A program made the translations under genes and the position numbers. From Candidatus Heimdallarchaeum aukensis (GTDB taxonomy: Archaea > Asgardarchaeota > Heimdallarchaeia > Heimdallarchaeales > Heimdallarchaeaceae): a stretch of 64,000 bases of DNA. Each line of letters opens with the position of its first letter. Positions within the stretch are counted from its first letter, which is position 1. Positions 22,260 to 59,292 of this stretch are shown in pieces. Under the pieces are notes generated by a model that did no database searches, had not been told where the DNA came from, and saw only the letters and a list, made by a program, of their open reading frames with translations. The stretch is from the NCBI GenBank assembly GCA_021513695.1, contig CP084166.1, positions 2,272,001 to 2,336,000 on the forward strand, given 5' to 3'.

Positions 22260-23723
22260 TTAGAGTTGTTTGTAATTGATAATTCTAACTGTTAGTGGTT
22301 TTTTTGAAATATCTGCAATTCTTGCACCAATTATAAGTGAGATTCCTTTTGTATGTGCAATTTCAAGTAATCTTTGAGTTACTACTCCATCCACTATCAT
22401 TGTTTGAGCTTTTTCAATATTTTGTAGTTTGTTAAAAATCTCTTTTACTGAACTTTTTAGCACAACATTATAATTTTCATCAAAAACAACAGCTTCAAAT
22501 TGTTGTTTTACATCATTTACAGCTTTTTCTAACTGTTCAGGAAGCCTTATTCTTCTGATTACGCGTCTGGTGTGTTGTTGTCTTCCGCTTTGTGGATAAC
22601 TTCTTTGTTGTCTTCCGCTTTGTGGATAACTTCTTTGTTGTCTTCCGCTTTGTGGATAACTTCTTTGTTGTCTTCCATTCTGTGGATAACTTCTCTGTGG
22701 ATGACTTATTTGCTCTTTTTGTGGAGTGTGTCTATGATGAATCTCTTGTTCGTCTCTTCTTATAGTTTTTGAGGGGCGGAGTTCATGTTCATCTCTTTTT
22801 TTGCGTTTTTTTGGTTCTCCCTTTCTCTTTGTTCTCTCCTTGAACTCTGCAACAGTGATACCTTTATCGCTTCCAGTCAAGAAAATTGCTTTTTCTATCG
22901 GAACAGCATTTTTTAGTGCTTCATGTATCTCTGCCTCTGTGAGGTCTTCTACTTCTTTTCCCACAGGTGCTCTAGCTACATAACTTACATTAGCAACTTG
23001 AATTAGTTCTTTTAAAATTAAGTCTGCTCCCCTATCTCCATCGAGAAAAGCTGTTACTGTTTTATTTTTTATCAATTCTAGTAGTTTTTTAGGTATACTT
23101 GTTCCATTAACTGCTATTGTATTATCTATTCCAACTTTCAATAGGTTTATTACGTCTGCTCTACCTTCTACTAGAATAACCTTAGACGATTTCTCAAACC
23201 CAGGTCCTGCGTTGAATTTTTCATCTGTTAAACGTATCACAGTAGATTCTTTTACTTTTTTTGATGATTCTTCAACTTCTCTTTGAATTGAAGCACTAAA
23301 AGGACTTACCTTTTCATCCCATTGTCTAATAATCTCTGCGGCCCGATTAACAATGGCTTTCCTCTTTTTTATTCTTACATCAGTTATCTCATTCAGTTTT
23401 ATTTCACAATTACAAGGTCCAACCCTATCTACTGTCTCAAGTGTTGCAGCTAAAATCGCTGTTTCAGTTCTTGATAGACTAGATGGGATGATAATTTCAC
23501 CTGTTGTTATTCCCTCTTTGCTTGATATTTTTACATCAATTCTTCCAATCTTTCCAGTTTTTTGTAATTCTCTAATATCTAATTCCTCACTGAGTAAACC
23601 ATCAGTTTGGCCATATAATGCCCCTATAATGTCTGGTTTTTCTACTATTCCAATTACTTTAAAATTTGCATGTATCTCATATTTTGTCGTTGCTGTATCG
23701 GTTTTAGCACCCATTTTCATCAT
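22260..23723 (-). CDS. dnaG: Archaeal DnaG-like primase (TOPRIM); contains an in-frame low-complexity tandem-repeat insertion
   Basis: N-terminal KYEIHANFKVIGIVEKPDIIGALYGQTDGLL. TOPRIM ILVEGRADVINLL … FLDGDRGADLI. Confidence 0.8.
   Translation of the reverse strand: MMKMGAKTDTATTKYEIHANFKVIGIVEKPDIIGALYGQTDGLLSEELDIRELQKTGKIGRIDVKISSKEGITTGEIIIPSSLSRTETAILAATLETVDRVGPCNCEIKLNEITDVRIKKRKAIVNRAAEIIRQWDEKVSPFSASIQREVEESSKKVKESTVIRLTDEKFNAGPGFEKSSKVILVEGRADVINLLKVGIDNTIAVNGTSIPKKLLELIKNKTVTAFLDGDRGADLILKELIQVANVSYVARAPVGKEVEDLTEAEIHEALKNAVPIEKAIFLTGSDKGITVAEFKERTKRKGEPKKRKKRDEHELRPSKTIRRDEQEIHHRHTPQKEQISHPQRSYPQNGRQQRSYPQSGRQQRSYPQSGRQQRSYPQSGRQQHTRRVIRRIRLPEQLEKAVNDVKQQFEAVVFDENYNVVLKSSVKEIFNKLQNIEKAQTMIVDGVVTQRLLEIAHTKGISLIIGARIADISKKPLTVRIINYKQL
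22581..22700. repeat. 4 x 30-bp tandem direct repeat (tcttccgctttgtggataacttctttgttg) inside dnaG, encoding QRSYPQSGRQ x4
   Basis: Three perfect copies plus one degenerate copy, in frame. Confidence 0.85.
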
Positions 23724-25601: not shown

Positions 25602-26657
25602 CTATATAAGACCCCTTTCCATGAGAACTCTAAATTCTTCAAGAGATAAACTCTCACCATTCTTATATTTTGTCAGAATGGCTTCAGCTCTTGAATCTAG
25701 AATCTCATCTCTTATTTGTTTAGCTCTGATTTTCCTTTCTTTTCTTCGTGCTTTTAGCTCAATTCCTACTGTTTTTGAAAGGATTTTCATATCTTTTGTT
25801 ATAGAATCTAATTCTTTCTTTATTTCTTTAATTTTAGAGCTAATAGTTAATACTTCTGCGTGTAATGAATCTGCTTCTTCTTTTGCAATTTTAGCTTCTT
25901 TTGTGGCTTCAACCATTCTCTTCTGATGAACTTGTGATTGATTAGCTAGTGTAGTGACGCTTGTATGATATGTTTTAATTTCCATTTGCATTTGTCTGAG
26001 TTTATTTTGCATTTCTTTAATTTCACTCTTTAGTTCTCTGAAAATCTCTAGTTTTTCAAGTGCTCCACTTAATGCTTCTAACTGCTTAAGGGTTTCTCTC
26101 TCTTGATCTTTATCCAGAAAAGGAGTTGTTTCTAGTTTTCTTTCAATAGCTCTTATTTTTTCACCTACTCTTCTATCTCGAGGAGCTCCTACATCTTTTA
26201 TCTTTGAGGATAGCTCTAAAAGTCTATTTTTAATCTTCTCTGCTTCCTCTTTAAGGATATCTCTCATCTGTTTTCTTACTTGTACTTCTTCGTTGATTTT
26301 GTCTCTTTTCTCTTTTTCACTTCTTGCTTCCTGAAAAAGTTTCTTCACAAGTTCATTTTTCTCGTCTCGTAACTTTCTCTTCTCACTTCTTTCTTCTAAA
26401 AGTCTATGTAATTCATTAGAAAGCATACTTCGTCTTTGTCTAAGATAACTTAGTTTCTCTTTCTTTTCCTCAAGACTGAGTTCAGCAAAACGTGATTCTT
26501 CTTTCTCTTTTTGTTCTTCAGTATCTGTTTTTGGGGTAGCTTGTTCCTGTATTAATTCTTGTTTTTGTTCTTGTTCTGGATTAGCTTTGTTTTCCCCTGT
26601 TAATTCAGATTCACTCTCTTCCTCTTTGATATTAATATTTTCCTCGTTCGAGCTCAT
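25602..26657 (-). CDS. Large KE-rich coiled-coil protein
   Basis: 351 aa, almost entirely heptad-like E/K/R/L. No catalytic motifs. Confidence 0.45.
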   Translation of the reverse strand: MSSNEENINIKEEESESELTGENKANPEQEQKQELIQEQATPKTDTEEQKEKEESRFAELSLEEKKEKLSYLRQRRSMLSNELHRLLEERSEKRKLRDEKNELVKKLFQEARSEKEKRDKINEEVQVRKQMRDILKEEAEKIKNRLLELSSKIKDVGAPRDRRVGEKIRAIERKLETTPFLDKDQERETLKQLEALSGALEKLEIFRELKSEIKEMQNKLRQMQMEIKTYHTSVTTLANQSQVHQKRMVEATKEAKIAKEEADSLHAEVLTISSKIKEIKKELDSITKDMKILSKTVGIELKARRKERKIRAKQIRDEILDSRAEAILTKYKNGESLSLEEFRVLMERGLI

Positions 26658-26749: not shown

Positions 26750-26908
26750 TTATTTTTTGTCAGATCGTCTCATACGTAGATTCTTTGATCTGCATTTTCT
26801 ACATTTTTTTGCAGTTATCGGGTTAGTAGCTGAGCATTCTCTACAAACCTTTACATCCATCAGATGTGCTCGTGCTATTGCGCGATGTTCGGGATTAGTT
26901 ACTGGCAT
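26750..26908 (-). CDS. rpl40e: 50S ribosomal protein L40e (52 aa), missed by the ORF track
   Basis: Translation MPVTNPEHRAIARAHLMDVKVCRECSATNPITAKKCRKCRSKNLRMRRSDKK has the L40e C4 zinc-ribbon pattern (CxxC…CxxC, NPxxAxKCRKC). Confidence 0.7.
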   Translation of the reverse strand: MPVTNPEHRAIARAHLMDVKVCRECSATNPITAKKCRKCRSKNLRMRRSDKK

Positions 26909-27257: not shown

Positions 27258-28523
27258 TTGAATTACTCAAAGCGGTTTAATAATTGTCGAATGGCGGTTG
27301 TAACAATGAATAAAACTATACAAGAAACGCTTAAATGGTTTGAAAATGAAATTTCTTCTGAACTTGCTAAACCTAGAAAAACTGCTTCTAAGCACCTTGA
27401 TGTTATAAAAGATAGGGTAAATGATATTAAAGATACTTCAGAAAGATTTGATTATAGTGATGTTAACGATCCTGATGTTTATCAAAACTATGCTACATCA
27501 ATTTATAAGAAAACTTTAGAAAAAATGAATGAAATTGAATTTCCAGAAGTAATTACATATAAGAATATTGACGATTTTTATAATCGGACTTTAAATATCC
27601 TTAATTCATATATTGAAATTCTAGCGAAGTACTTAACTTGGCTTAAACGTGATCGTTCTTATAAAACTAGAGTTAAAAATTTAGATAGGGCAATTACTAG
27701 ATTACAGCAAGAATTGTATAAACTTAACACAAAAACACTTGATGAATACTTAGAATATGAAAAATATGAGAGCGTGATTGATGATTTAAACTATCTGCAG
27801 GAATTAATTAATAGAAAAAAAGAAATTGAAAATGAAATTGAATCTCACAAAGATGATATTGAGCGATTAGATAAAATCATTGCAGAAAAATCTCGTGAAA
27901 AAGAAGAATTAGAGGGTCACCCGGGTTTTGCACAGCTAAAAGAAAATAAGGCGAAACTTTCACAGATTGAACTTACTATCTCTTCCAAAGTTAATGAAAT
28001 TAAGAAATTATGCTCAAAAATACTTAAAGCTGCTGATACAAGAAAAGTTGAACTTGACGATTATACACGAGAGCTGATTAAATCTATTATCAAAAATCCG
28101 CTAGAAGAGCTTGTTAAGGAAACTGATGGATATCCTGGCATCAAAAGTATGTTAAAAGAAGTTAGAAAGATTAGTGAATCACCAAATATTCAAATGAAAA
28201 AGGAGAAACTAGAAAAAGCTTTTAACAATATGGAGGAAATTCTAAACGATAGTTTACTTGACCTACAAAAAGAAGCTAAATTTTTACTAAAACAAACACA
28301 AGCTATTGAAGAGAAATTCGCTGAATTAGAAATTGATCGGAAAATATCCAAATTAAAACGTGAAATTGAAGACCTAAAAATAGATAAAGATAGAATAACA
28401 TTAGCTCAACGACGCGAATTAGCTGAAATAGAAAAAGAAGTAAACAATCTTTATGAAGATTTAATGAAACGTATAGAAGAATATACTGGAAAACACGTAA
28501 ATATTCTCTTAGAAGCCACTTGA
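27258..28523 (+). CDS. Large coiled-coil protein (true start may be the internal ATG ~27306)
   Basis: 421 aa, heptad-rich E/K/L/I. No enzymatic motifs. Confidence 0.45.
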   Translation: MNYSKRFNNCRMAVVTMNKTIQETLKWFENEISSELAKPRKTASKHLDVIKDRVNDIKDTSERFDYSDVNDPDVYQNYATSIYKKTLEKMNEIEFPEVITYKNIDDFYNRTLNILNSYIEILAKYLTWLKRDRSYKTRVKNLDRAITRLQQELYKLNTKTLDEYLEYEKYESVIDDLNYLQELINRKKEIENEIESHKDDIERLDKIIAEKSREKEELEGHPGFAQLKENKAKLSQIELTISSKVNEIKKLCSKILKAADTRKVELDDYTRELIKSIIKNPLEELVKETDGYPGIKSMLKEVRKISESPNIQMKKEKLEKAFNNMEEILNDSLLDLQKEAKFLLKQTQAIEEKFAELEIDRKISKLKREIEDLKIDKDRITLAQRRELAEIEKEVNNLYEDLMKRIEEYTGKHVNILLEAT

Positions 28524-28694
28524 TTAATAGCTTTTTTTTTTATTTTTTATAAAGAAATGATATTGCAATTATCAACACAATTTTTAAATGATATGACTAA
28601 ATGATATAAGATAGTAAACATAGAACAACATTTAATATGTTTAACATCATTTAGCATATTAAGGATATGTAAATATATTTGAGGAGAATCAACT

Positions 28695-28994
28695 ATGATT
28701 TCACAAAAACAATTTGAAGAAACTCTGAAAAAGTTAGAAAGCCATCCCAGTGTAAGGGGCGTTATAATAACAAGTAATGATGGCTTACCTATCTCTAGTA
28801 CAAAAAATCTTTCAATAGAAATGCGAGAAAATGTTTCAGCATTAGTAGCTTCATTGGTTGGAAGAGCTAAAGCTGTGGTTAGCGAACTAGAAGAAGGAGA
28901 CTTGAATTTCTTTACTTTAGACACAACAAAGGGTGAGATTCTTGTCGCTCCAGAACAGGATTATGTGTTAATCGTTTTACGTAATAAGCAATAA
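28695..28994 (+). CDS. Roadblock/LC7 (MglB-like) domain protein
   Basis: 99 aa. [19 protein letters not shown] … [14 protein letters not shown] … [15 protein letters not shown] fits the roadblock alpha-beta-alpha fold. Confidence 0.7.
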
Positions 28995-29065
28995 TAGAGT
29001 CATCATTAGTAGAAATTATATATAAAAGAAATAGGTTTCATTAAACAACGGAAGAGAGAGTTAGA

Positions 29066-29632
29066 ATGAGAAAAGATGCCTCAGGAAAGCAACACTTTAA
29101 GATAGTGTTTGTTGGACCTAGTTTAGCTGGAAAAACAACTTTACTTAGAAGACTCCATTCTGATGTCACAGGAATAAAAAAAGGTGGATTAAACAGTATA
29201 GAAGATCCTTCAGGAAGAACAATTTACTTTGATTTCTCACCTTTTATGGCGACATCAAATGTCATTTTGGATATTTACACAGTGGCTGGTCAAAAAAGGC
29301 ATAGACACCAAAGGGCGTTAGTTTTGAAGGGTGTTGACGGTCTCTTGTTTGTTGCAGATTCTTCAAGAGCGATGTTGGCCGATAATGTCGAATCAGCAGA
29401 AGAATTGAAAAAAGAACTTGGAGACAAATTAAACAATGAGATTCCACTAGTTATAGTTCTAAATAAACGTGATTTGCCAGATGCAATGGATAAACGAGAG
29501 TTAATCGATGCTTTAAATCTTGGAACAAATTTACCAGTTTACGAAACAATCGCCACAGAAGGTATAGGTGTTAAACGCGCTTTTCAGTCCCTAGCTAGAG
29601 AAGTTTTATTAAAACAAGTTTATAACATGTAG
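29066..29632 (+). CDS. Small Ras-superfamily GTPase, MglA/Arf-like
   Basis: G1 GPSLAGKTT, G3 TVAGQ (MglA-type), G4 LNKRDL. 188 aa. 71 bp downstream of the roadblock gene. Confidence 0.75.
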   Translation: MRKDASGKQHFKIVFVGPSLAGKTTLLRRLHSDVTGIKKGGLNSIEDPSGRTIYFDFSPFMATSNVILDIYTVAGQKRHRHQRALVLKGVDGLLFVADSSRAMLADNVESAEELKKELGDKLNNEIPLVIVLNKRDLPDAMDKRELIDALNLGTNLPVYETIATEGIGVKRAFQSLAREVLLKQVYNM

Positions 29633-29653: not shown

Positions 29654-30994
29654 ATGAACTTGGAGAACAATTTTTTAACCTTTTTTTTAGCTTGTAAATA
29701 TCGTTTTAAAAATTTAAAAGGAGAAAAGCTTCAAAGATATCAAGAAAATCGGTTGAAGAAAATTGTTGATTATAGTGTAAAAAATTCTCCTTTTTTTAAG
29801 AGGTATTATTCTAATTACAACATTAATGATGTTTTCAATTTACCGACTGTAAATAAACATATAATGATGGAAAACCTATCAGAGTATAACACAGTTGGTT
29901 TTACAAAAGAAGAATTAATCAATTTCTGTTTGGAAGTGGAAAGGTCTAGGGACTTTTCTAAGAGATATAAAAAGTATAATGTTGCTATGTCTTCTGGAAC
30001 AAGCGGAAATAAAGGAATTGTAATAACTAGTCCAAAAGAAGAACGATATCTTAAAGCAGCTTTTTTTGCACGATTCCCTTTTCCTAGAACCTTGAAATTA
30101 AATATCGCTTTTATTTTGAGGGTTAGTACTCCTGCATTTAACATTAATAAATTTGGACAGAAACTCACCCATTTCAGTTTGCTTGATCCCCTAGAAGAAA
30201 TAGTAGAAAATCTAAACTCGCTTCAACCAAATATTCTCTCTGCTCCTCCTTCAATGCTCAATCTTCTTGCGGACGAGTACAGTGAGGGAAAGTTATGCAT
30301 TAAACCAAAAAAAATTATCTCTTATGCTGAAATCTTATATCCCGATATTAGAAAAAAAGTTGAAGAAACTTTTGGTATTAGAATTGATGAAATCTACCAA
30401 GCAAGTGAAGGCCCAATCGCTATGACTTGTAAACATGGATCATTACACATAAATGAAGACCTACTTGTTTTACAAACTCTAAACGAAGATGGTAGTCCAA
30501 CAGAAAAAGGAGAACTTTGCCACAAACTTATTGTATCTGATTTATATAAAACATCTCAACCCATAATCCGCTTTGAACTTAACGATATGATTAGAATAAG
30601 AGCTGAAAAATGTACTTGCGGTTCTGGATTTAGAATAATCGATGAAATTGTAGGGCGAACTGATGATTTATTAATTGGGGTTAATTCATCTACTGGTCAG
30701 GTTCATTACATTTTTCCTGATTATATACGCAGAGCTATTATCTCTTCTTCTGAGCAAGTAATCGAGTATCAAGCAATTCAAACCAGTAAAAACAGATTAG
30801 AAATTTCAATTCAATTATCAAAAGATAAAGACGAATTCCAAAACATCAAATCAGTTATCAAAAGAGCTGTAGAACAAGTTTTCAAAACTTACAATTGTGA
30901 GATTCCTGATGTTACAGTGAAAATTAGTCAATCTCAACTTCATCCAGTTTCTAAGAAGTTAATACGCATTCAACGAAAGTTTTCTATTGCTTGA
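29654..30994 (+). CDS. Adenylate-forming enzyme, PaaK/CapK/F390-synthetase-like (ANL superfamily)
   Basis: AMP-binding P-loop MSSGTSGNKGIV, YQASEGP, and a C-terminal ligase-domain Lys region. Confidence 0.55.
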   Translation: MNLENNFLTFFLACKYRFKNLKGEKLQRYQENRLKKIVDYSVKNSPFFKRYYSNYNINDVFNLPTVNKHIMMENLSEYNTVGFTKEELINFCLEVERSRDFSKRYKKYNVAMSSGTSGNKGIVITSPKEERYLKAAFFARFPFPRTLKLNIAFILRVSTPAFNINKFGQKLTHFSLLDPLEEIVENLNSLQPNILSAPPSMLNLLADEYSEGKLCIKPKKIISYAEILYPDIRKKVEETFGIRIDEIYQASEGPIAMTCKHGSLHINEDLLVLQTLNEDGSPTEKGELCHKLIVSDLYKTSQPIIRFELNDMIRIRAEKCTCGSGFRIIDEIVGRTDDLLIGVNSSTGQVHYIFPDYIRRAIISSSEQVIEYQAIQTSKNRLEISIQLSKDKDEFQNIKSVIKRAVEQVFKTYNCEIPDVTVKISQSQLHPVSKKLIRIQRKFSIA

Positions 30995-32356: not shown

Positions 32357-32833
32357 ATGAGAACTTTTTTTAGATTGAGAATGAGTTTAAAAACAAGTTT
32401 CTACTGCTATGGACATAAAAATGTTTTATGTAAGCATTTAACTACACTTGAATTTACTACAGATGACTTTCTTACATTAAGAGGTGACTGTATAATAGGA
32501 ATAAGATCCAACATGAGTTTGTTTTCACTACCAGAAAAAATGAAACAATTTATCAGAAATGATAATACAAAAATAATTGTCAAGATGGAAGTTGACGATT
32601 TAGTTGAAGAAGTAATAGGCTATGGAAATTCAAAGCTGGAATTATCAGACACACATGCAATGATTATTAGAAAAAGCTCTTACACATGTTCAAGGACTTT
32701 AATGATAGGTGCAAATAAGGCTGCAATTGATATTTCAAGAGAGATTGTTCAAAAAATGAAAAACCCTGATTCTAAAATGAGGGTCACAATTCAAGTGTTT
32801 CCTGCAGATAATAGAAGATCAATACACGCATGA
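32357..32833 (+). CDS. Conserved archaeal hypothetical (DUF371-like)
   Basis: YGHKNVLCKHLTTLEFTTDDFLTLRGDCIIGIR resembles the DUF371 core (RGDCII). Recalled from memory. Confidence 0.35.
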   Translation: MRTFFRLRMSLKTSFYCYGHKNVLCKHLTTLEFTTDDFLTLRGDCIIGIRSNMSLFSLPEKMKQFIRNDNTKIIVKMEVDDLVEEVIGYGNSKLELSDTHAMIIRKSSYTCSRTLMIGANKAAIDISREIVQKMKNPDSKMRVTIQVFPADNRRSIHA

Positions 32834-57847: not shown

Positions 57848-58444
57848 CTATCTAATGTATATCTCTCTAAATTTCAAAACCTTTTCTTCACTTTGGATAG
57901 CTAATCTTGCAGCATGAGAAAAAAGTTTTTCAACATTTTCAGATGATAATGCAGATGTTTCTATATAATCAAAATTATTTTCTTTTGCATATTCTTCTGC
58001 TTTTTCTCTGTCTACAGCTCTTGCATTTTTTAGATCACTCTTATTTCCACATAAAATAATTGGAATTTCTGAACATTTTTTCTTTATTTCACTAACCCAA
58101 AAGGATACATCATCAAATGTTGACGTTTTAGTAATATCATAGACTACGATAGCAACTTTAGCTCCTAGAAAATATTTTTGTCTAACAAATCCAAAAATTT
58201 CTTGAGCTCCTGTATCCCATAAACTAATTCTAACATTAACATCATCGGTGAGTATATTTTTAGACAAATTTTCATTTAATTCGTCCTTTGTTAAGGAAAG
58301 ACTTTTCGTTAACCAACTCACACCCATTGTTGGGATATAAGAATATGAGAAAGTGTTCATAGCATATCTTCTTGCCAATGATGTTTTTCCTACAAAAGCT
58401 GAACCAATTGTTATAATTTTATACAAATGTCGTTCTATCATTTT
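57848..58444 (-). CDS. Rab/Ras-like small GTPase
   Basis: G1 GSAFVGKTS, canonical G3 WDTAGQE, G4 GNKSDL, G5 ETSAL. Start taken at the internal Met (MIERHLYKI), which overlaps the stop of the upstream longin-like gene by 4 nt (ATGA). Confidence 0.75.
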   Translation of the reverse strand, partial: KMIERHLYKIITIGSAFVGKTSLARRYAMNTFSYSYIPTMGVSWLTKSLSLTKDELNENLSKNILTDDVNVRISLWDTGAQEIFGFVRQKYFLGAKVAIVVYDITKTSTFDDVSFWVSEIKKKCSEIPIILCGNKSDLKNARAVDREKAEEYAKENNFDYIETSALSSENVEKLFSHAARLAIQSEEKVLKFREIYIR

Positions 58445-59292
58445 TATCTCCAAAATATTTCTATTAGTTTTCTTTCTATGTTGATACTGCTTAAACGCCT
58501 CCAATCATCGAGAATCAAAGGCTTTGTATTCGTATTGATTAATTCTCTAAACTGTTCTGGTTCAAAATACTTACTAGTGATATCAACAAATTCTGAAATG
58601 AAATTAAGGAATGTCTCCTTTATTTGGCTATAATCTTCAATTTCTGTTATTTCTGTTGAGTTTACTTCATCTCTTATAAAGAACCCTTCTTTGTCAAAGA
58701 AAAATAACTCGTCAATTTTTTTGTAATCATTTATTAATTTATTAACATCATTTCTTAGTAACTGATTAATTTTTTTCCTTTTCGATTGATCTTCCACAAC
58801 TTTTTGTATTCCTGAACATACTGAATTTATTATATTCTCAAATATTTCTAATAAATTTCTGAACTCAATATCTTTGATGTGATTAGATATAATAGCGTTC
58901 ACTTTGAAAACTTCGGAAATCACCATAGATGGCGATAAGGGTTTTTTTACTTGTTTAATTTCATCAAGGAAATTTTTAGCAGTTTCTTTATCATAGATGT
59001 CAAAAGAGTATAGAAAGAGATTCATTAAAAAGAATAATTGAGAATACGCCATTCCTTCTTTTTGCTCTTGGGAGATTAGTACAAATATGAAATCATACTT
59101 CTTTTCAACTAAAACAATTGTTTTCTTAAAAATTATTTCTCTTAATGGTCCTAATTCTCTTTGTTCTCCCATCTTTATGAATTTTAATAGTTCCGCAAAT
59201 TGGTCAGGTTTAAGAATTAAATTTTCACTATTAGGCGTGTCTGTAAAGATAGTATCGTAGTTATTTTTGTTGAGTATGTAAAAATTAACCAA
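58444..59292 (-). CDS. Longin/roadblock-like domain protein (partner of the Rab-like GTPase)
   Basis: N-terminal YILNKNNYDTIFTD…IVLVEKKYDFIFVLISQEQKEG… fits the longin fold. Remainder helical. Confidence 0.45.
   Translation of the reverse strand: MVNFYILNKNNYDTIFTDTPNSENLILKPDQFAELLKFIKMGEQRELGPLREIIFKKTIVLVEKKYDFIFVLISQEQKEGMAYSQLFFLMNLFLYSFDIYDKETAKNFLDEIKQVKKPLSPSMVISEVFKVNAIISNHIKDIEFRNLLEIFENIINSVCSGIQKVVEDQSKRKKINQLLRNDVNKLINDYKKIDELFFFDKEGFFIRDEVNSTEITEIEDYSQIKETFLNFISEFVDITSKYFEPEQFRELINTNTKPLILDDWRRLSSINIERKLIEIFWR

Follow-up and report, generated by a model that had tools for sequence, protein, structure and literature searches.

The 64,000-nucleotide stretch of the Candidatus Heimdallarchaeum aukensis genome analysed here (contig CP084166.1, positions 2,272,001 to 2,336,000; hereafter the window) carries on its forward strand a gene for a 99-residue Roadblock/LC7 protein, a spacer of 71 nucleotides, and a gene for a 188-residue small GTPase (Table 1). 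That the two genes form a pair came from an original prediction made by reading the letters of the window. Its coordinates are exact, and the two products are recognised by the Pfam model Robl_LC7 and by small-GTPase models, respectively. The observation is confirmed, and its interpretation as the archaeal MglB-MglA arrangement is partly supported. A roadblock gene does stand next to an MglA-type GTPase gene, and this pairing is conserved among relatives, but the roadblock protein scores as a member of the RBLC7, or dynein-LC7, type rather than as an MglB, and the GTPase carries the motifs of Group 1, not those of archaeal MglA.

Family scans of the GTPase return Arf as the best Pfam model (4.8e-18, 65.7 bits), followed by Ras (6.6e-12) and Roc, and the NCBIfam model small_GTP at 4.3e-13. 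When the protein was compared with all PDB sequences by phmmer, its closest matches were the MglA proteins of Thermus and Myxococcus (∼4e-31, 111 bits), and Arf scored 7.5e-12 (48 bits). The GTPase is 40% identical to MglA of Myxococcus xanthus, and the region between the G1 and G2 motifs aligns without gaps, so that the insertion of the bacterial type is present: K23 is separated from T52 by 29 residues, as is K25 from T54 in Myxococcus MglA. The match to the Arf profile covers 173 residues of the GTPase against 163 profile positions.

The nucleotide-binding motifs are complete. Both the P-loop (G17PSLAGKT24, fitting GxxxxGK[ST]) and the G4 motif (N133KRD136, fitting [NT]KxD) are intact, so that the loss of either, named in the original prediction as a ground for refuting it, does not apply. 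The TVAGQ sequence that had been taken as an MglA-type G3 motif is present as T72-V73-A74-G75-Q76. In 22 Asgard homologues, G17, S19, G22, K23 and T24 of the P-loop and the N, K and D of G4 are invariant. Equally invariant are R51-T52, which align with R53-T54, the intrinsic arginine finger and the G2 threonine of the family. The segment Y54-F55-D56-F57 of strand β2 aligns with the β2-screw segment; in it, F55 and D56 are conserved throughout, and the homologues have F or Y at position 57. Q76 aligns with the catalytic Gln82, and the Thr and Gln of G3 do not vary; the Pro of TVPGQ gives way to Ala in each of the 22 Asgard proteins, a slight deviation from the consensus in bacteria. A further difference lies at the position equivalent to Gly12 of Ras (G21 in bacterial MglA), where all 22 Asgard MglA1 sequences have a serine, S19 here (codon 29120-29122). 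This residue is not among the features that define the MglA family. In bacterial MglA, the substitution G21V at the equivalent position blocks the hydrolysis that is stimulated by the GTPase-activating protein (GAP).

Group-1 MglA is bacterial and is defined by an Arg beside the G2 Thr, by TVPGQ and by the G1-G2 insertion, while archaeal MglA belongs to Group 4, with TT and GTPGQ (Wuichet & Sogaard-Andersen 2015, PMC4316618). Since the GTPase has Group-1 features in place of the TT and GTPGQ of Group 4, it is not of the 'archaeal' MglA type, and, going by its motifs, it is a catalytically complete Group-1 MglA (MglA1) and neither an Arf nor a Rag. MglA1 has been recognised as one of the GTPase groups of Asgard archaea (Vargova et al. 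2024, citing Klinger 2016), so that its occurrence there is not new.

The Pfam ranking, together with the names 'ADP-ribosylation factor-like' or 'SRP receptor beta' that some sources give to homologues, would also fit an Arf-like or SRP receptor beta (SR-beta)-like GTPase of membrane traffic, next to which the roadblock gene would stand incidentally. We consider this highly improbable. The hallmarks of Arf proteins are a glycine at position 2 and an N-terminal amphipathic helix, and neither is present in the GTPase, whose N-terminus reads MRKDASGKQ. Its G3 motif starts with Thr rather than with the Asp conserved in GTPases other than MglA (Wuichet & Sogaard-Andersen, PMC4316618), published trees part MglA1 from the Asgard Arf-related groups (Vargova et al. 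2024), and the adjacency of the roadblock gene is conserved. In a Foldseek search with an AlphaFold2 model of the GTPase (predicted local distance difference test score, pLDDT, 86), the top 14 matches are all MglA, with template modelling (TM) scores of 0.81-0.88, and structures of the Arf family come next with TMq ∼0.56-0.71. This ranking and the PDB sequence search effectively refute an Arf or SR-beta identity of the GTPase.

A second small GTPase is encoded in the window on the reverse strand (57848-58504). Its product of 218 residues is Ras/Rab-like (Pfam Ras 1.6e-45). The gene bears no relation to that of the MglA-type GTPase, and no roadblock gene adjoins it.

To place the roadblock protein, we took 80 loci from Asgard genomes, each around a homologue of the GTPase, called their open reading frames (ORFs), and classed the roadblock genes by seed searches and class profiles; 79 of these loci have an intact GTPase ORF. 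The protein from the window matches Robl_LC7 at 1.3e-19 (70 bits against a cutoff of 23). Its best match in the PDB is Odin-RBLC7 (7F8F, 1.6e-25), aligned from end to end, and the roadblock light chains of eukaryotic dynein come next, at 1e-16 to 1e-9 (3L7H, 9.7e-17); no MglB chain is found among its PDB matches at E ≤ 0.1. It is 37% identical over 93 residues to human DYNLRB1, with the PDB matches serving as an independent check. Among the class profiles, that of RBLC7 gives 149 bits, whereas the other three classes span 19-28 bits, the MglB-like class giving 19. The 99 residues align end to end with RBLC7 and DYNLRB proteins of 94-96 residues, without the third helix and C-terminal extension that MglB has; solved MglB chains have 136-192 residues.

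These comparisons bear on the reading of the pair as a canonical MglB-MglA operon of GAP and GTPase, in which the 99-residue protein would be the archaeal MglB. In its favour, the protein has the Robl_LC7 fold and is encoded immediately next to an MglA-family gene, and a Robl_LC7 gene within four genes of MglA is what Wuichet & Sogaard-Andersen take as a 'coupled MglB'. It is opposed by the PDB matches, by the missing helix and extension, by the clean separation of the class profiles, and by the existence of a separate Asgard protein of 155 residues that does have MglB as its best PDB match. We therefore regard the canonical operon as improbable, and on profile and structure-database matches we assign the roadblock protein to the short RBLC7 type and not to the orthologues of MglB.

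The pair is conserved well beyond the window. The closest homologues of the GTPase are found in Heimdallarchaeaceae, and in each of the 14 closest loci (L001-L014, all Heimdallarchaeaceae) the RBLC7 gene directly precedes the GTPase gene on the same strand. Over all Asgard loci, an RBLC7 orthologue lies within ∼6 kb of the GTPase in 56/79, on the same strand in all but one (55/56), so that the adjacency is not a matter of chance. In most Heimdallarchaeaceae loci, the pair is flanked by unrelated housekeeping genes of the opposite strand (PCMT and FEN1 upstream, SDR downstream), and thus behaves as a self-contained unit of two genes. The window and the corresponding locus of Ca. Heimdallarchaeum endolithica PR6 (CP084167.1, L001) are collinear, with a nucleotide identity of 81-90% over most of the locus and of 97% in one segment of 498 nucleotides; the two published Heimdallarchaeum species share an average nucleotide identity of 88% (PMC8813620). 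Between the two genomes, codon differences in the GTPase gene are 59 synonymous and 1 nonsynonymous, and those in the RBLC7 gene 16 and 2. The corresponding counts are 88 and 24 for the gene of a 406-residue helical protein upstream, 130 and 53 for the F390-synthetase-related gene downstream, and 92 and 41 for the gene of a membrane protein beyond it. The pair is under strong purifying selection, and the GTPase gene is the most constrained of the locus. Seed and class-profile searches found no other roadblock gene, MglB-like ones included, within the 64-kb window, and a search with the MglB-like profile returned none named Heimdallarchaeaceae among the best 120 of 513 matches.

The explanation that we favour, if only by a modest degree of confidence, is that MglA1 would act as a GTP-dependent switch on a roadblock dimer, and that the homodimer of the adjacent RBLC7 would be the likeliest platform, of the GAP type. 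In the MglA family, it is through the β2-screw that the intrinsic Arg53 and Gln82 come into position, and the MglB dimer, bound in a 2:1 complex, gives no catalytic residue (Miertzschke 2011, PMC3199381); the aromatic residues F56, F57 and F59 of the β2-screw of Thermus MglA contact MglB (PMC3199381). The GTPase of the window would cycle between GDP and GTP as bacterial MglA does. GTP binding would re-register the β2 segment Y54-F55-D56-F57 so that the GTPase's own R51 and Q76 could reach the γ-phosphate, and a roadblock dimer sitting on the switch face would stabilise this arrangement without supplying a catalytic residue, that is, as a GAP-type platform. In Heimdallarchaeaceae, the most likely candidate for this platform would be the adjacent RBLC7 homodimer. 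From the structure of Odin-RBLC7 (7F8F), RBLC7 was proposed to offer a free face to a partner helix (Tran et al. 2024). The C-terminal helix being absent from RBLC7, a helix of another protein could bind to its opposite face, and the 406-residue helical neighbour would be one candidate. The cellular output, by analogy, might be that a partner is positioned on a membrane or on the cytoskeleton according to the bound nucleotide.

How far RBLC7 could be the partner of MglA1 has to be considered in the light of the gene clusters of other Asgard archaea. Four roadblock classes recur among the loci, RBLC7, RBB, RBC and RBD. RBB proteins have 155 residues and a conserved C-terminal tail, and since their best PDB matches are bacterial MglB (1.7e-5 to 1e-4), RBB is the MglB-like member. 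RBC proteins (∼121-128 residues) are of the Thor/MKD1-RB type (7F8M, 7.9e-27), and RBD proteins (∼117-122 residues) are encoded by divergently transcribed genes. The commonest arrangement in Asgard archaea is RBD< RBLC7> RBB> MglA1> RBC> (L016, L019, L023:8262-11065 and others). The order RBLC7>RBB>GTPase is found in 37/79 loci, from Thor, Jord, Freya, Baldr and unclassified Asgard metagenome-assembled genomes (MAGs). An SMC gene often lies just upstream of the cluster, and in Odin also ScpAB. The Heimdallarchaeaceae pair, RBLC7>MglA1, is a reduced form of this Asgard-wide cluster.

Other loci lack one member or another. Hod-type loci have RBB>GTPase...RBC> without RBLC7. The GTPase gene stands alone in seven loci of Heimdall-labelled MAGs (L037, L039, L047, L051, L056, L059, L075), where the MglA1 orthologues are 58-59% identical and no roadblock gene was detected within 10 kb. 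In Odinarchaeia (L086, L087, 4016-5872), the order is RBD< RBLC7> RBB> RBC>, with only 23 nucleotides at the position of the GTPase, so that the roadblock quartet persists without MglA1; the RBLC7 of this cluster is 78% identical to the crystallised protein of 7F8F. Thor-type loci are extended by a Sec23/24-like gene on the same strand directly upstream of RBLC7 (L088:1834-3519 and 30 loci, e.g. L055:5819-7441), giving the order Sec23/24-like> RBLC7> MglB-like> MglA1> RB>. The Sec23/24-like protein has 540-560 residues and a zinc finger, trunk and beta-sandwich in this order; Sec23_trunk scores 35-40 bits, above its cutoff, and Sec23_BS up to 34.6 bits. No Sec23/24-like gene is present in the window. 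We came across neither the RBLC7-MglB-MglA1-RB cluster nor the Sec23/24-like adjacency in the searchable literature, the coverage of which is incomplete and no proof of novelty.

The wider cluster gives rise to a serious alternative, which we hold to be possible although distinctly less probable than a role of RBLC7 as platform. RBLC7 would be an accessory or adaptor subunit in a multi-roadblock assembly and would make no contact with the GTPase, in the manner of MglC next to MglB in Myxococcus or of LAMTOR4/5 next to LAMTOR2/3. The role of GAP would fall to an MglB-like protein from another part of the genome, and the adjacency in Heimdallarchaeaceae would be what was left after the MglB-like gene had moved. 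The 37 loci in which RBB lies between RBLC7 and MglA1 would agree with this, as would the Odin cluster, with RBLC7 among other roadblocks and no GTPase, and the Hod-type loci, with an MglB-like protein, a GTPase and no RBLC7. The conserved C-terminal tail of the MglB-like protein could lend a helix to RBLC7, and multi-roadblock assemblies are known in Myxococcus. On the other side, the isolated pair is kept in 14/14 Heimdallarchaeaceae loci under very strong purifying selection, which is not expected of a leftover adjacency without functional coupling, and the window holds no other roadblock gene.

Platform action of RBLC7 on MglA1 has to be weighed against several observations. In the commonest Asgard cluster, it is the MglB-like gene, and not RBLC7, that adjoins the GTPase gene, and the Hod-type and Odin loci suggest that RBLC7 may be accessory rather than a GAP. 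An MglB-like gene may also exist elsewhere in the genome, beyond the 64 kb examined. The serine S19, invariant in Asgard archaea where bacterial MglA has Gly21, suggests that the kinetics may differ from those of the bacterial enzyme. As to the helix for the free face of RBLC7, the 406-residue protein is linked to the pair only patchily, adjoining it in five loci, from two Heimdall subclades, and showing no linkage elsewhere.

It is useful to compare the pair with better-known systems. With the bacterial MglA-MglB polarity module of Myxococcus xanthus and Thermus thermophilus it shares, besides the sequence identity of the GTPase, the Roadblock/LC7 gene beside the GTPase gene, the intrinsic Arg by the G2 Thr, the Thr-for-Asp replacement in G3 with its Gln, the NKRD motif, the G1-G2 insertion and the aromatic residues of β2. 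It differs in the type of roadblock partner, RBLC7, with its 99 residues, having neither the length of MglB (136-165 residues) nor its third and C-terminal helices; in the TVAGQ and Ser of the GTPase, where bacterial MglA has TVPGQ and Gly; and in a β2-β3 loop that is four residues shorter. The pair is archaeal, and neither RomR nor Frz genes turned up in the surroundings that were inspected.

Odin-RBLC7 and the DYNLRB/LC7 proteins resemble the roadblock protein in length, in alignment over the full length and in having no C-terminal helix, whereas the gene in the window is coupled to that of a small GTPase. Dynein is not known from archaea. RBLC7 was linked to no GTPase by Tran et al. (2024), according to whom the GTPase genes of MK-D1 do not, in general, share operons with roadblock genes. 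Relative to the commonest Asgard MglA1 cluster, the locus in the window has orthologous RBLC7 and MglA1 genes of identical order and strand, but is without the MglB-like gene, the Thor-RB-type (7F8M-like) gene and the divergent RBD gene.

In the Ragulator complex, a roadblock dimer serves as a platform for a GTPase. The combination of short and long roadblocks (LAMTOR4/5 short, LAMTOR2/3 long) with a small GTPase, Rag, and the use of a roadblock dimer as platform make Ragulator comparable to the Asgard system. However, the GTPase here is MglA1 and not Rag, and has no C-terminal roadblock domain; the LAMTOR5 family model gives the roadblock protein 26.0 bits, just under its cutoff of 27; and no LAMTOR1-like wrapping protein was identified. 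What the original prediction had proposed as a relation to Rag/Arf regulators is therefore reduced to a generic analogy of roadblock platforms.

The coupling of MglA-family GTPases with Roadblock/LC7 proteins has reportedly been known since the work of Koonin and Aravind in 2000. It is also described by Wuichet & Sogaard-Andersen 2015 (PMC4316618), an MglA-MglB pair from Thor has been modelled with AlphaFold 3 in published work, and the lists of conserved Asgard eukaryotic-signature genes include those of Roadblock/LC7 proteins and of small GTPases (PMC8813620; Liu et al.). The operon highlighted by Liu et al. is a different one, of roadblock/Rab-like/DENN composition.

The neighbours of the pair are collected in Table 1.

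Table 1. Genes and sequence features at and around the roadblock-GTPase pair, with positions counted from the first letter of the window.
Feature	Position	Strand	Remarks
DUF7121 coiled-coil protein	25602-26657	-	
L40e	26750-26908	-	
406-residue all-helical protein gene	27303-28523	+	Asgard-wide family; in the ORF list from TTG 27258 (421 residues)
T10 and T6 runs directly 3' of the stop of the 406-residue protein gene	28532-28548	+	letters inspected directly
Short roadblock gene (RBLC7 / dynein-LC7 type)	28695-28994	+	ATG start; 99 residues; Pfam Robl_LC7
Spacer between roadblock and GTPase genes	28995-29065	+	71 nucleotides, AT-rich; letters inspected directly
Group-1 MglA-type GTPase gene (MglA1)	29066-29632	+	ATG start; 188 residues
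F390-synthetase-related adenylating enzyme	29654-30994		TIGR02304, 322 bits against a cutoff of 252
420-residue membrane protein, downstream			Acyl_transf_3 match below threshold, E = 0.0017
DUF371	32357-32833		

The flanks are as the original prediction had described them: two large coiled-coil proteins and L40e on one side, an adenylating enzyme and a membrane protein resembling acyltransferases on the other, the acyltransferase match being below threshold. That these genes form a conserved five-gene neighbourhood is rejected by comparison of the loci, since the F390-related gene follows the GTPase gene only in L001, L005 and L014, and only in L001, the sister genome, do the genes of the membrane protein and of DUF7121/L40e lie close to the pair. 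The two coiled-coil neighbours had also been taken together as possible effectors or scaffolds. They belong to unrelated families (hhalign probability 0.6%), so that a single family is rejected too, and only the 406-residue protein is recurrently linked to the pair.

The 406-residue protein belongs to an unnamed Asgard-wide family of 218 clusters at 50% identity, mostly of ∼400-435 residues, whose conserved motifs include RFDYSD..DPDVYQNY, KYLSWLKRDRSYK and HPGF. The lengths of the homologues favour the ATG start, and the TTG start is probably 15 codons too early. Its gene adjoins RBLC7/MglA1 in five loci (L001, L013, L024, L026, L030), in three arrangements and two Heimdall subclades, lies 3.9-9 kb from the pair in five further Heimdall loci, and is absent from all others. 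A profile of the family built on more than 100 members matched only 11 ORFs, one in the window and one in each of 10 Heimdall loci among the 80. A link of the family to the GTPase cluster throughout Asgard archaea is rejected, as the family has other neighbours in Loki-, Hod- and Hel-labelled MAGs and in one ENA contig. This distribution hints at a lineage-restricted association with the pair, within Heimdallarchaeia only.

Two side observations concern other coding sequences. In several Heimdallarchaeaceae genomes (L003:9845-11400, L005, L008, L013), a Thor-RB-type roadblock gene with a coiled-coil gene directly behind it lies ∼7.4-9.5 kb downstream of the GTPase gene, and this coiled-coil gene matches the DUF7121 protein of the window only weakly (E 1e-9 to 1e-16). 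Roadblock and coiled-coil genes are thus adjacent a second time. On the reverse strand of the window, a DnaG-like Toprim protein of 487 residues (22260-23723) has ∼4 tandem RQQRSYPQ(S/N)G peptide repeats in its C-terminal half.

The letters around the pair offer some indication of how it may be transcribed. Termination at oligo-T runs is established in archaea, and the T10 and T6 runs behind the 406-residue protein gene look like such a terminator, which would part this gene from the roadblock-GTPase unit. Inspection of the sequence showed no run of five or more T in the spacer between the roadblock and GTPase genes, nor between the GTPase gene and the F390-related gene. The spacer contains a TATA-like stretch at ∼29013-29028 and a purine-rich run at 29050-29060, just 5' of the ATG of the GTPase gene. 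The absence of a T-run from the spacer is compatible with co-transcription of the two genes, although the spacer may hold an internal promoter, and the T10 and T6 runs upstream, taken with the absence of T-runs inside the pair, are compatible with a transcription unit that starts at RBLC7.

We would like to point out that both families are already catalogued in Asgard archaea, MglA1 as a defined group and RBLC7 through the Odin-RBLC7 crystal structure, so that the pair by itself leaves the existing picture unchanged. Its value is that of a minimal case, in which a dynein-LC7-like roadblock protein and a bacterial-type MglA form a unit of two genes, at a locus free of MglB-like genes, in a lineage close to eukaryotes. 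Whether an LC7-type roadblock protein regulates a small GTPase is a question that has reportedly stood since Koonin and Aravind in 2000. It was raised again by Wuichet & Sogaard-Andersen (2015, PMC4316618). As the roadblock protein beside the GTPase is of the dynein-LC7 type and not an MglB, the unit would be convenient for testing the action of LC7-type proteins on small GTPases. We put forward, tentatively and as something we think could well be wrong, that RBLC7 and not an MglB is the working partner of MglA1 in Heimdallarchaeaceae, and that RBLC7 is an ancestral subunit of an Asgard-wide multi-roadblock GTPase module composed of RBD, RBLC7, the MglB-like protein and RB, joined by the Sec23/24-like protein in Thor-type loci. 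If RBLC7 is indeed the working partner, the protein that stands nearest, among prokaryotes, to the roadblock light chain of eukaryotic dynein would be a platform for a small GTPase, and this would give a concrete ancestor to the idea that eukaryotes lost mglA yet kept and re-used its roadblock partner.

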